A stretch of 64,000 nucleotides of DNA from Clostridium sp. CAG:710 (GCA_000432595.1 HF996867.1:1551-65550), one strand, 5' to 3'; positions 41,978 to 46,838 are shown, counted from the stretch's first letter. Made by a program: numbers and translations. Notes: generated by a model not told the origin, from the letters alone.

Positions 41978-42514
41978 ATGGAAAGCGAAAGAAAGAGTAA
42001 AGGTATTATAATTGGTGTGCTATGCGCAGTAATAGTATTTATGAGCATAGGTTTCGCTGCATTATCATCTCAATTAACAATTAATGCTAATGCAACAATA
42101 AGCGATACATGGAATGTTCAAATTACTAATATCGTTAAAAAAGAAGGCTCTGCTGGAGTAACTGAAACTGCTGCACCAACATTTACCGCTACTACTGCTA
42201 ACTTCAATGTTTCATTAAAAGAACCAGGAGACTATGCTGTTTATACTGTAACAGTAAAAAATACTGGTAGCCTTGATGCAGTTCTTACTAAAATAACTGA
42301 AACTGAAGGAGAAGGTGGATCAGCTGCTATTAAATATACAGTTACACCAGCTGCAGGAAGCGAACAAGGTTCTGACTTAGCAAAAGAAACTGGTACTCAT
42401 ACTTTTGACGTAAAAGTTGAATATGATGCTACTGCCACTGGTGAACACGCACCAACTGCTGGAGCTTCAAAAAGCTTAACTGTAGTATTAGATTACAATC
42501 AAAAAACTGCTTAG
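41978..42514 (+). CDS. TasA/camelysin-like secreted fibre protein, paralogue 1 (SipW-cognate-type N-terminus)
   Basis: N-terminal hydrophobic region then SQLTINANATISDTWNV; core LKEPGDYAVYTVTVKNTGSLDAVLTKI parallels TasA LKPGDKLTKDFQFENNGSLAIKEV; ggagg RBS. Confidence 0.55.
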   Translation: MESERKSKGIIIGVLCAVIVFMSIGFAALSSQLTINANATISDTWNVQITNIVKKEGSAGVTETAAPTFTATTANFNVSLKEPGDYAVYTVTVKNTGSLDAVLTKITETEGEGGSAAIKYTVTPAAGSEQGSDLAKETGTHTFDVKVEYDATATGEHAPTAGASKSLTVVLDYNQKTA

Positions 42515-42579
42515 TTTAATAATTTAAACTTAGTAAAAAATAGGTCTTTGAACTTATTTTAATTTGTTAGGAGGACAAG

Positions 42580-43737
42580 ATGCGTAAGGTTAATAGTAAA
42601 AGTATTATTGTTATAGCAACAATTATATCTTATTTAATTTTATCTTGTCTTCTCCTAATAAATAAATTTAGTAATACTTACAATAGTATAATAAATCCCA
42701 TGTTTTGGATTTTGCTTGCTGTAGTATGTTTTATTTTATTTAGGAATGAATATGTTAATAAAAAATTTAGACTTGATATCTTACAGACAGTAATTATAAC
42801 GGTAGTAGGATATTTTATATTTTATTATATATTAGGATTTATTGTTGGATTCCAAGATACACCTTATTCTAGTGGAATTAAGGCAATATTTAAAAATATT
42901 TGGAATTTTGGAATAATAATAATTTTCCAAGAATATGTAAGACAAGTTTTAGTTAATAGAAGTGGAAGAAGTAAAGCTCTAATAGTTATAATAACAATAC
43001 TATTTACATTTGTAGATATTACAAGAATACTAACTATATCAAAAATTGATAGTGGTGCGAAATTATTTCAAACTTTCGTTATAACTATTAACCCTGCAAT
43101 AGCAAGAAGTATGCTTTTAACATATCTAACATATAAAGCTGATTTCTTACCATCGCTAGCATATAAAATTCCGCTAATAATATATTCTTTTATAGTTCCT
43201 TTTATACCAAACCTAAACTGGTTTTTATTAGGAGTAATTGACTTGCTTTTACCATTTGTAGTTTTTGCAAGAGTATATAGACTACTATATAAAAGGGAAA
43301 AAGTAGAAACAAATAGAAAGAAATATAAAGGAATGTTAGCATATACTCCAATATTTATAGTACTGATTATCTTAGTAATACTTGTATCCGGAGCATTTAA
43401 ATACCAATTGATTGCAATTGCATCTAACTCTATGAACCCTGCATTCTATAGGGGAGATGCTGTAATATTAAAAAAGGTAGATAAAGAGGAAAGGAAAAAT
43501 ATAAAAGTAGGAGAAGTAATTGTATATAATTCTGATGGAGCATATATCGTACATAGAGTCATTGAAAAGAAAGAAACAATGACGGGTGCATATCTTTATA
43601 AAACTAAAGGTGATAATAATAATGCACCAGATACTAAGCTAGTAGAAGCTAGCCAAATAGTTGGAAAGTTTACAATAGGAATTAAATACATAGGTTATCC
43701 AACAGTAATGCTACAAGAAGCATTAGCAAGAAGATAA
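42580..43737 (+). CDS. SipW-type (archaeal/ER-type S26) signal peptidase I fused to N-terminal ~270-aa polytopic membrane domain
   Basis: C-terminal IAIASNSMNPAFYRGDAVIL (SxSMxP catalytic Ser), IVHRVI (His) and TKGDNNNAPD (KGDNN) motifs; N-terminal region has ~8 hydrophobic helices and no His. Confidence 0.65.
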   Translation: MRKVNSKSIIVIATIISYLILSCLLLINKFSNTYNSIINPMFWILLAVVCFILFRNEYVNKKFRLDILQTVIITVVGYFIFYYILGFIVGFQDTPYSSGIKAIFKNIWNFGIIIIFQEYVRQVLVNRSGRSKALIVIITILFTFVDITRILTISKIDSGAKLFQTFVITINPAIARSMLLTYLTYKADFLPSLAYKIPLIIYSFIVPFIPNLNWFLLGVIDLLLPFVVFARVYRLLYKREKVETNRKKYKGMLAYTPIFIVLIILVILVSGAFKYQLIAIASNSMNPAFYRGDAVILKKVDKEERKNIKVGEVIVYNSDGAYIVHRVIEKKETMTGAYLYKTKGDNNNAPDTKLVEASQIVGKFTIGIKYIGYPTVMLQEALARR

Positions 43738-43756
43738 AAAGGAGGTGGCGATATTC

Positions 43757-44836
43757 ATGCAGAAAAAGACTGTCGTTAAGCATAAATTTAAAACGTATTT
43801 TATATCGTTTTTAGCAATATTTTTAATGATTACTTCGTTTTTTCTAATATATTCGTCACTAAACATTAAAACTAGTTCAAATGTTGCTTTGTTAACTTAT
43901 TCAGAAAAAAGTAACTTAGATTATAAAGTATACTTAAAGAAAAATGATTATTTTAAGGAAAAATATTTACCAAAAAATAAACAGTATATCGCGTCAATTA
44001 TAGATTATATAGATGTCTTCTATGATTATACATTTTCTTCATCTAAACATATTGATGCTAAATATAAGTATAAAGTAGTTGCTAAAATAAATGCTCAATA
44101 CAAAGTTGATACCAACAGTATTAAACAAGTATGGCAAGATGAATATGTATTGTCAGAAGGAAAAGAATTAGAAATAAAAGACAAAAACACATTTACAATA
44201 TCAGAAAATGTTAAAATTGACTATGATAAATATAATCAAATAATTAATAACTTTAAAAAAGATTACATGTTATCAGTAACATCTGATTTAACAGTTTCAT
44301 TACTAATTGAAGTAGATGGCAAATATGTACCTGCCGATAAAGTATTTGATATAGATGCTGATATAAATCTTACAATTCCGTTGTCAGAACAAACTATCAA
44401 CATCAAGATGGATTACAAAGATATAAACAACAGTCAAATAGTAAGTGTACAAAAACTTTCAAGATTTAGTAATATTCCATTTTTCATATTAGGACTTATT
44501 ACTTCAGTTGCATCAATAATAACAATTACAGTAGTAGTAAAAAGAATAATGAAGGAAGATAAAAAACAATCAAAATATATAAAAAGATTAAAAAAGATTT
44601 TACACGACTATGGAGATATAATTGTTGAGGTAAAAAATCCACCAGATATTCCAAAAGATAAATCAAGTGAAGTTATGAGTTTTGCTGAACTTGTAAATGC
44701 ACAACTTGAAGTAAGATCTCCAATTATCTTCTCTGAAAAATCAACCAACGAAATAGGTCAATTTGTTCTATTTGATAAAGAGCATGCTTATTACTACTTG
44801 CTTAAATCAGATGAATTAGACAGAAATAAAAAATAG
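43757..44836 (+). CDS. locus-specific membrane protein of unknown function (TapA-position accessory protein)
   Basis: N-terminal TM, second TM near residue 240; aggaggtg RBS before ATG 43757; no known motif. Confidence 0.35.
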   Translation: MQKKTVVKHKFKTYFISFLAIFLMITSFFLIYSSLNIKTSSNVALLTYSEKSNLDYKVYLKKNDYFKEKYLPKNKQYIASIIDYIDVFYDYTFSSSKHIDAKYKYKVVAKINAQYKVDTNSIKQVWQDEYVLSEGKELEIKDKNTFTISENVKIDYDKYNQIINNFKKDYMLSVTSDLTVSLLIEVDGKYVPADKVFDIDADINLTIPLSEQTINIKMDYKDINNSQIVSVQKLSRFSNIPFFILGLITSVASIITITVVVKRIMKEDKKQSKYIKRLKKILHDYGDIIVEVKNPPDIPKDKSSEVMSFAELVNAQLEVRSPIIFSEKSTNEIGQFVLFDKEHAYYYLLKSDELDRNKK

Positions 44837-46528: not shown

Positions 46529-46531
46529 TTT

Positions 46532-46562
46532 AAAAAAACTGTAATTGTACAGTTTTTTTTAA
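46532..46562. terminator. bidirectional rho-independent terminator
   Basis: hairpin actgtaattgtacagt flanked by A6 and T8 runs, between convergent genes. Confidence 0.65.
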
Positions 46563-46598
46563 CAATAAAAAAGCAATCATTAAGATTGCAAATAAATA

Positions 46599-46838
46599 TT
46601 ATTTAGTAAAATTCATTTGATTAAATATATTGGTGTCATAAAATTCCGCAACAGTTATTCCAAAAACCTTACATATTTTATATATGTTTTTAGAACTAGG
46701 ATTTTCTACTTTATTATTTAGTAATGCAAAAAGGGTTGCTACTGGTACAGTGGAAAGTTCTGATAACTTATTTGGAGTAATATGATTTTTCTCACATAAT
46801 TCTAATATTCTATTGATTGTTGCTTGAGTAAAAGACAT
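46599..46838 (-). CDS. XRE-family HTH transcriptional regulator (SinR-like, 79 aa)
   Basis: HTH TINRILELCEKNHITPNKLSELSTVPVATLFALLNNK; convergent with TasA/SipW-like operon. Confidence 0.6.
   Translation of the reverse strand: MSFTQATINRILELCEKNHITPNKLSELSTVPVATLFALLNNKVENPSSKNIYKICKVFGITVAEFYDTNIFNQMNFTK

Follow-up and report, generated by a model that had tools for sequence, protein, structure and literature searches.

We analysed a window of 64,000 nucleotides of low-GC chromosomal DNA (24-33% GC) from the human-gut bacterium Clostridium sp. CAG:710 (GCA_000432595.1, HF996867.1:1551-65550), in which we find argS and a pseudouridine synthase gene (both housekeeping), a tRNA cluster and, in the second half, a cluster of genes for small pilin-like proteins, a fused signal peptidase and an accessory membrane protein that we read as a putative surface-fibre system related to the AbpX system of Pyrodictium abyssi. 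A preliminary description of the window had placed here an extracellular fibre locus of the TasA/camelysin-SipW type with a SinR-like neighbour; open reading frame (ORF) calling recovered every ORF of that description, with position and strand unchanged, and the same locus is present in NCBI assembly GCA_037318155.1. The genes concerned are:

41978-42514, plus strand: P1, 178 amino acids (aa), predicted major fibre subunit.
42580-43737, plus strand: P2, 385 aa, a membrane domain modelled with the CPBP/Rce1/SpdC fold, followed by a signal peptidase I of the archaeal/endoplasmic reticulum (ER) type.
43745-44836, plus strand: P3, 363 aa, a DUF5305 protein.
44936-46528, plus strand: P4, 530 aa, a pilin-like N-terminal domain and a GLUG-containing C-terminal region, predicted tip/adhesin.
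46599-46838, minus strand: XRE gene, 79 aa, with a match to HTH_26/HTH_3.
51288-51794, plus strand: P6, 168 aa, an orphan third paralogue, predicted minor subunit.

The three pilin-like proteins are indeed paralogues, with a relatedness well beyond chance: E 2e-12 for P1 versus P4, 1e-11 for P4 versus P6 and 0.002 for P1 versus P6, the paralogous part of P4 being its N-terminal 175 aa. A family profile run against the whole window found these three proteins only (P4 with 125.9 bits, P6 with 159 bits). The N-terminal motif with NATI[SD] that was said to be common to all three occurs in P1 and P4, whereas P6 has KVRVE. The remaining 355 aa of P4 contain three GLUG motifs (E 5.5e-8 in a first Pfam search and E 5e-9, with three matched stretches, in a second), which confirms the GLUG-tailed paralogue of 530 aa; P4 is predicted to be a tip or adhesin subunit. 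In the public annotation of the locus, P4 starts at Met20 (511 aa), by which the signal peptide is lost, and P3 has a length of 359 aa; we prefer the longer P4, starting at 44936, because the family alignment supports that form. Ala or Ser occupies the predicted -1 position of the cleavage site in 161 of 164 family members; in P6 this residue is Phe, for which reason P6 possibly stays membrane-anchored. In a metagenome scan P6 was recovered from the same species only (97-100% identity, including at least one contig from a human-gut metagenome).

Searches in Pfam and NCBIfam connected P1, P4 and P6 to weak matches only, namely to Ig-like CARDB, DUF11, DUF7507 and choice-of-anchor D domains, and sequence and profile searches of the PDB with P1, P4 and the family alignments gave no significant match. 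The AlphaFold2 model of P1 (predicted local distance difference test score, pLDDT, 86.5) consists of a helix (residues 2-32), a low-confidence coil (33-46) and a beta-sandwich (47-175), and the predicted layout of the protein is: a signal peptide of the Sec type, without twin arginine, an amphipathic N-terminal strand at about 28-44, and the Ig-like beta-sandwich at 47-175. The segment that would act as donor strand is an unstructured coil in the modelled monomer (pLDDT 55-66). A 30-residue N-terminal helix that precedes a beta-sandwich is also compatible with type IV pilin-like subunits, in which the helix is retained as filament core as in the archaeal adhesive pili, and the Foldseek matches include, at E 0.059, the AAP type IV pilin of Sulfolobus (8q30). 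We nevertheless consider this very unlikely: the partners that are conserved comprise a type I signal peptidase and a DUF5305 protein, families of prepilin peptidases, assembly ATPases and platform proteins are absent from the Pfam/NCBIfam matches of the cluster and its immediate neighbours, there is no conserved (class III) site of the G↓F...E5 type behind the positively charged N-terminus, the conserved small-x-small motif lies after the helix and not before it, and the membrane domain of P2 lacks a conserved Asp pair. A sortase-assembled pilus was also rejected: neither P1 (ending ...LDYNQKTA) nor P4 (ending ...GGYPILKWQR) has a C-terminal hydrophobic anchor, and there is no Pfam/NCBIfam sortase match among the cluster proteins and their immediate neighbours.

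The peptidase part of P2 (residues 258-381) matches TIGR02228, the archaeal-type signal peptidase I, with 101.5 bits (cut-off 51.85), whereas the Bacillus SipW equivalog model stays below threshold (69 bits, cut-off 190); the SipW-type peptidase fusion of the preliminary description is an archaeal/ER-type peptidase behind a polytopic N-terminal domain. Residues S284, H325, D345 and D351 are invariant in 50 P2 homologues and P2 therefore fits a Ser/His enzyme of the ER/archaeal type, with a full-length architecture of 380-390 aa that is kept down to 33% identity in 429 database proteins. The AlphaFold2 model (pLDDT 83.5) shows eight helices within residues 6-240, a transmembrane anchor (246-270), a beta-rich peptidase domain and a short C-terminal helix, i.e. 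nine long helices and one short one, which resembles the 'ten-TM' peptidase of the abpX loci; we set the domain bounds at 1-240 for the membrane domain and at 246-385 for the anchor with the peptidase domain. Judged from this model, the membrane domain has the eight-helix fold of CPBP/Rce1/SpdC proteins. Of the CPBP catalytic motifs EExxxR, FxxxH and HxxxN/D we found only E118-x-x-R121 to be invariant in the 50 homologues, on the fourth helix and at a position that we take to correspond to motif 1 (EExxxR). The domain has no conserved histidine (no column with His in more than 18 of the 50 sequences) and thereby lacks both His motifs by which active CPBP proteases are marked; it is probably not an active CPBP protease. 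A Pfam search of the domain gave no CPBP match. The CPBP fold is a new element of such loci: our literature searches found no published description of a CPBP-fold domain fused to a signal peptidase, and the preprint that gives the abpX-type peptidase ten transmembrane helices makes no mention of CPBP, CAAX or Rce1 (bioRxiv 10.64898/2026.01.04.697558).

The third position of the cluster, hitherto described as an unknown membrane protein, is taken by a member of DUF5305 (PF17231, E 4e-19, 69 bits, cut-off 29) with transmembrane segments, by hydropathy, at 15-41 and 241-269. DUF5305 proteins have this two-segment architecture and were proposed as signal-peptidase accessory in the haloarchaeal Tafi and the AbpX loci (bioRxiv 10.64898/2026.01.04.697558; Tafi papers), and by analogy P3 is predicted to be a signal-peptidase accessory subunit, equivalent to TafG. 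The composition of the locus is not as singular as was supposed, since the 'fused peptidase' and the 'unrelated accessory' are the ten-helix peptidase and the DUF5305 protein that have already been reported for abpX loci.

To what extent the subunits belong to TasA/camelysin itself, as the preliminary description had it, can be judged from several comparisons. A genuine operon of the tapA-sipW-tasA or sipW-bsaA type would account for a SipW-type peptidase that adjoins small secreted paralogues; 15 of 50 family members have sub-threshold matches to Peptidase_M73 (best E 6e-4), and hhalign aligns the family with TasA at E 1.7e-4 (50% over 58 columns) around the PGD..N.G motif, the TasA query being identical to 8AUR over residues 28-261. 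For the mature part, however, this alignment amounts to 38% over 32 columns, and P1, P4 and P6 match neither Peptidase_M73 (PF12389), of which they do not reach the gathering score, nor the SipW-cognate signal TIGR04088 even at E ≤ 1, TIGR02228 being the one of the three expected models that was matched, by P2. The PGD...N.G core motif, taken before as a TasA/CalY signature, is present, but it is a hallmark of the DUF11, CARDB and DUF7507 sandwich domains as well, and a TasA-like jelly roll was not recovered, the comparison of the P1 model with TasA (8aur) being not significant (E 0.14, TM 0.37). The low score of the Bacillus SipW model weighs in the same direction, no family match suggests a TapA-like gene (the protein in that position, P3, is DUF5305), and the alignment with AbpX, given in the following, is better and longer than that with TasA. 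Because hhalign to TasA yields just 38-50% over 32-58 columns, membership of TasA/camelysin fails; we regard it as largely refuted as a claim, and a genuine operon of this type as highly improbable.

AbpX belongs to a branch of the TasA superfamily that was described in January 2026 for the fibre of P. abyssi, which polymerises by donor-strand complementation, and AbpX-like clusters were reported for Thermoproteota, Bacillota and Chloroflexota (bioRxiv 10.64898/2026.01.04.697558). We used the AbpX sequence from the supplement of that preprint (database copy P0369). BLASTP of P1 against AbpX was not significant. With AbpX as query, a word-indexed phmmer search yielded just five sequences, all of the Pyrodictium type, for which reason the AbpX profile is thin; against TasA this thin profile reached 6% by hhalign. 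The P1 family (50 sequences) aligned with the five AbpX-family sequences at 95.1% (E 3e-8, 152 columns), and at 69% (E 4.4e-5, 118 columns) without the signal peptides, with reversed-sequence controls at 0.2-0.3%. As the link is of the profile-profile kind only, a BLAST-based survey probably misses the P1 family. The neighbouring genes can be aligned too: the gene beside abpX in P. abyssi encodes a 380-aa peptidase whose alignment with the P2 family is collinear, spans 317 columns (98.9%, E 1.9e-17) and pairs GLxxGF, E-x-x-R (GREMVR versus FQEYIR) and PxxP.

The similarity to AbpX extends to the cleavage site and the strand behind it. The family consensus site (n=164) reads M-[AST]-[VI]-[GA]-[YF]-[AS], then A-[LF]-S-T-T-L-T-I-N-G-T-A-T-I-T-S-T-W-D-V, where the [GA] and [YF] positions were fixed by the pattern with which the sequences were collected and the remaining positions were unconstrained. 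With a cut after [YF]-[AS], positions 2, 6, 8, 10 and 12 of the mature proteins are L/F, L, I, G and A, and this register equals that of the buried residues W2, L6, L8, A10 and I12 of the AbpX donor strand. The AbpX site TYA↓QWSETLSLSATI aligns with GFA↓ALSSQLTINANATI of P1, and the end of the AbpX signal with its donor strand (...AIGLTYA↓QWSETLSLSATISTGSLDVDIK) resembles the corresponding part of P1 (...SIGFA↓ALSSQLTINANATISDTWNVQIT). Of the 164 sequences, 89 have L and 62 have F at strand position 2, and position 4 is mostly T or Q. The P2' residue of the site is L or F in the family, F in TasA and W in AbpX; a bulky P2' was reported to be why TasA needs SipW and not a LepB-type enzyme (PMC10269814). 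The most likely cut in P1 is after G25-F26-A27, the position that aligns with AbpX, and the N-terminal semi-tryptic peptide is predicted to begin ALSSQLTINANATISDTWNVQITNIVK.

We then collected the genetic context of the P2 family by a scan of species-representative genomes, in which the best 79 loci were taken, 78 were analysed for gene order, and the ORFs were scored with profiles of the three families (pilin, peptidase and DUF5305). A P2-family peptidase occurs in at least 527 species-level genomes. Nearly all of the best 79 loci come from gut or rumen metagenome-assembled genomes (MAGs), labelled Bacilli, Tenericutes, Clostridia, Clostridium sp. CAG:1000 or CAG:594, next to some others (e.g. 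Muribaculaceae), and the MAGs with close relatives of the proteins bear the labels Clostridium sp. or Bacilli bacterium. Most of the 78 loci, which represent uncultured gut Bacilli and Clostridia, repeat the order pilin(s), 380-aa peptidase, DUF5305: a pilin-family ORF lies within 7 kb of the peptidase in 71 loci and a DUF5305 ORF likewise in 71, both are present in 53 of the 59 loci with enough flanking DNA, DUF5305 follows immediately 3' of the peptidase in 61 of 78, and a pilin lies immediately 5' of it in 56 of 78. Short pilin genes are found in 2-5 tandem copies in many of these loci. Pilin-headed proteins of at least 250 aa occur in 18 of the 78 loci (250-806 aa) and have variable C-terminal domains (an ALK/LTK glycine-rich domain, Flg_new, a Hint-like domain, or nothing recognisable); as these domains differ between loci, they fit exchangeable tip/adhesin modules. 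The XRE regulator, by contrast, has no relative in any of the 79 loci, and the histidine kinase and the 313-aa Pro-rich membrane protein that flank the system have none either, apart from one kinase match (locus L018); lacking such counterparts, the three were excluded from the system. The proposed analogy with SinR finds no support; the XRE gene encodes a bare 79-aa helix-turn-helix protein. Conservation of the neighbourhood is thus seen for pilin, peptidase and DUF5305 and not for the XRE neighbour.

An exhaustive profile search for the P1 family, with clusters at 50% identity, gave 11,044 cluster representatives at E ≤ 0.001, 5,217 at ≤ 1e-10 and 484 at ≤ 1e-30, the weaker matches including generic DUF11-type repeats. 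In the best 150 matches, 134 have a single N-terminal match and 16 are giant repeat proteins that match the generic sandwich part only; about half of the 134 are of about 165-200 aa and about half have C-terminal extensions, with a total length of up to 1,080 aa. The latter half counts in favour of the main rival explanation, in which the locus encodes no fibre but a dedicated sorting system: the N-terminal signal and the first Ig-like domain would be a sorting or stalk module, and the complex of CPBP-like domain, signal peptidase and DUF5305 protein would display diverse surface proteins as monomers, comparable to exosortase, archaeosortase and myxosortase. About half of the family representatives carry long and unrelated C-terminal domains behind the N-terminal module, a CPBP-family enzyme, myxosortase, is known as a sorting protease (PMC11980579), and P1 resembles the fibre subunits of solved structure only weakly. 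Yet the commonest form of the family is a stand-alone protein of about 170 aa without cargo domain, encoded directly 5' of the peptidase and often in 2-5 tandem copies, a pattern of short genes that is typical of pilin genes and therefore counts against sorting; moreover the segment behind the cleavage site is a conserved strand of alternating hydrophobic and polar residues in the donor-strand register of AbpX, and both the family and its peptidase align with AbpX and the peptidase of AbpX. On balance we consider a sorting system unlikely.

The explanation that we prefer, with a probability of roughly 0.6, is a surface fibre of the TasA superfamily that assembles by donor-strand complementation without a chaperone and has the AbpX system as its nearest described relative; secretion, the exact cleavage site, polymerisation and the roles of P3, P4, P6 and the CPBP-like domain are the parts that we infer. 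The sequence of events would be as follows. The major subunit P1 would be exported by Sec with its N-terminal helix uncleaved, after which P2, probably working with the DUF5305 protein P3, would use its Ser284/His325 pair of the ER/archaeal type to cut P1 at [AST]-[VI]-[GA]-[YF]-[AS], most likely after G25-F26-A27. The cut would release the amphipathic strand A-L-S-S-Q-L-T-I-N-A-N-A-T-I, which would enter the incomplete beta-sandwich of a neighbouring subunit and so build the fibre. P4, which has an equal signal, strand and pilin domain and in addition the GLUG C-terminal domain, would join as tip or adhesive subunit, and P6 would be a minor subunit. The CPBP-fold domain of P2, being without catalytic histidines, would most likely serve as a membrane scaffold for the signal helix of the substrate or for P3, and not as a second protease.

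Several observations weigh against this fibre explanation. The AbpX link falls to 69% once the signal peptide is removed, and part of the AbpX score may reflect a common fold, because both families resemble CARDB/DUF11 sandwiches. AbpX has an acidic residue at strand position 4 that contributes to calcium binding (bioRxiv 10.64898/2026.01.04.697558), and this residue is not conserved here, with Glu in just 5 of the 164 sequences. Two cuts in P1, behind G25 and behind A27, agree with the -3/-1 rule. Taken by itself, the N-terminal domain of P2 does not align significantly with the P. abyssi enzyme in hhalign (2.6%, E 0.017). Finally, no LPXTG or SLH anchor was noticed on reading the ORFs of the cluster, for which no dedicated motif or domain search was made.

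Compared with the described abpX loci, the cluster shares a small beta-sandwich subunit, predicted to be secreted, whose amphipathic strand at the N-terminus has the register of AbpX, a dedicated ten-helix signal peptidase of about 380 aa with a DUF5305 accessory, and minor paralogues together with a larger tip protein; the strand of the AbpX monomer was moreover reported to be unstructured, as is the P1 segment in its modelled monomer. The P1 family differs from AbpX by the missing acidic calcium-binding residue at strand position 4 and by a less acidic composition (mature P1 has an isoelectric point of 4.7 and 11% Asp+Glu, AbpX about 4.0 and 15%), and the cluster differs from the abpX loci in that no SLH/LPXTG anchor, diguanylate cyclase or Spo0A-like gene was noticed in it and that the hosts are uncultured gut Bacilli and Clostridia. 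With tapA-sipW-tasA of B. subtilis and sipW-bsaA of C. perfringens it has in common a dedicated archaeal/ER-type peptidase beside the fibre subunit, a bulky P2' residue, an N-terminal donor strand (TasA, PDB 8AUR) and the PGD...N.G motif. SipW, however, is a short enzyme without a CPBP-fold fusion whereas P2 is fused, DUF5305 is absent from those operons as TapA is here, and the subunits described here fail Peptidase_M73/TIGR04088 and have no significant TasA fold match, with no evidence of SinR-type control. The haloarchaeal Tafi system (pilins TafA/TafE, TafD, TafG) likewise combines donor-strand pilins and larger structural proteins with a neighbouring pair of peptidase and DUF5305 protein, but its pilins are mostly Tat substrates where P1 is of the Sec type, and TafD has four transmembrane segments and two external domains where P2 has the CPBP-fold fusion. 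With the CPBP proteins (the Rce1 CAAX protease, SpdC of S. aureus) P2 shares the invariant Glu-x-x-Arg on its fourth helix, and it differs from them in having no Pfam CPBP match, no conserved histidine in the domain and a fusion to a signal peptidase. SipA/LepA of S. pyogenes is signal-peptidase-like and required for pilus polymerisation, but lacks the catalytic residues and serves sortase-assembled covalent pili, whereas P2 keeps Ser, His and Asp and no sortase gene or LPXTG motif was noticed at the locus, neither of which was specifically searched for.

A more speculative extension of the fibre explanation, which we hold to be doubtful, would make P2 and P3 a combined processing and assembly machine. 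A dead CPBP scaffold, comparable to SpdC and to APH-1 of gamma-secretase, would hold the signal helix while the fused peptidase cuts, and the strand would pass into the groove of the previous subunit, so that cleavage and polymerisation would be coupled at the membrane without chaperone, usher, sortase or ATPase; an uncleaved P6 would then be the membrane-anchored last subunit, and the arrangement would hold for hundreds of uncultured gut Bacillota species.

The putative transcription and translation signals of the cluster are:

41876-41905, plus strand: candidate sigma-70-type promoter upstream of P1, TTTACA, an 18-nt spacer and TATAAT preceded by TG.
41965-41971, plus strand: Shine-Dalgarno sequence AAGGAGG, 6 nt before the P1 start codon, read in the sequence.
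44841-44865, plus strand: hairpin AGAGGCC-AAT-GGCTTCT with T-tract in the gap between P3 and P4, its stem found by eye.
44877-44885, plus strand: extended -10 element TGATATAAT in the same gap, after the hairpin, read in the sequence.
46532-46589, no strand assigned: two hairpins that close convergent transcripts, between P4 and the XRE gene.

The promoter candidate of P1 agrees with 11 of 12 consensus positions, has TG before the -10 element and is the top match in the scanned region, as a match to the consensus only. Just upstream of it, after the preceding gene, a hairpin with T-run was seen by eye at about 41810-41830, which does not appear in the output of the terminator scan; this hairpin and the promoter candidate separate P1 from its upstream neighbour (40867-41808), which encodes the 313-aa protein with one N-terminal transmembrane segment, a low-complexity stretch rich in Pro, Thr, Val and Gln and an isoelectric point of 4.2. 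The stretch 44841-44885 suggests that transcription partly stops behind P3 and begins anew for P4, which is possibly transcribed independently since a hairpin with T-tract and an extended -10 element lie between the two genes; the stem seen by eye differs from the minimum-free-energy pairing, and the P3-P4 intergenic region as a whole folds better than shuffled sequences (z -2.7). The bidirectional terminator that was proposed between P4 and the convergent XRE gene is borne out: the hairpin at 46532-46559 has an A-run on one side of its stem and a T-run on the other, a second hairpin follows at 46573-46589, and no shuffle out of 200 folded as well as the pair (z-score -4.5).

Between the XRE gene and P6, a 121-aa gene (47023-47388) whose C-terminal half resembles, by eye, a CheY-type receiver is intact in GCA_037318155.1 (L080, 14444-14809) and is broken in the window by a frameshift or stop near 47140 into ORFs of 66 and 64 aa; strain variation, pseudogene formation and a sequencing error are possible causes of the break. 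The following stretch (47400-48250) is gene-poor, its sole ORF being an odd, Cys-rich one of 103 aa (47781-48092) where the L080 annotation has a 78-aa gene, and an Rfam search of 46840-48260 gave no RNA family at E ≤ 0.1. Within 49975-51794, a gap of 63 nt separates P6 from the gene upstream of it, which encodes a histidine kinase (HisKA and HATPase_c, N-terminal membrane domain polytopic) and has no adjacent response regulator. Downstream of P6, on the minus strand (51816-53003), lies a gene for a 395-aa protein that matches the F420-0:gamma-glutamyl ligase family across its whole length (PF01996, E 1.5e-49), which is unexpected for gut Bacillota; it is probably CofE-like or a related enzyme with another role. 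A T-box leader (17360-17567, 139.5 bits) and a cluster of 12 tRNA genes (35051-37329), both upstream of argS, and a further tRNA gene (30325-30398) are ordinary chromosomal features.

Taken together, the concept of the preliminary description was right and its family assignment wrong: the locus is of the secreted-fibre type and little described, with a dedicated SipW-like peptidase, a small major subunit and a large paralogue with an extra domain, and that description is thereby partly supported. The kind of locus is already known from the 2026 preprint, with bacterial members by prediction only. New are, next to the CPBP fold of the membrane domain of the peptidase, the very large gut-bacterial subunit family, which profile methods alone tie to AbpX, and a predicted strand that lacks the calcium-binding residue. 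The fusion of CPBP-like domain and peptidase offers a testable handle on how donor-strand systems without a chaperone couple the processing of subunits to their assembly. In Bacillus and several archaea, biofilms are held together by fibres of the TasA superfamily; the locus suggests that a very large, unannotated subunit family shares a system of the AbpX kind and, if such fibres are real, they would be candidate adhesion or matrix structures of abundant, uncultured gut bacteria.

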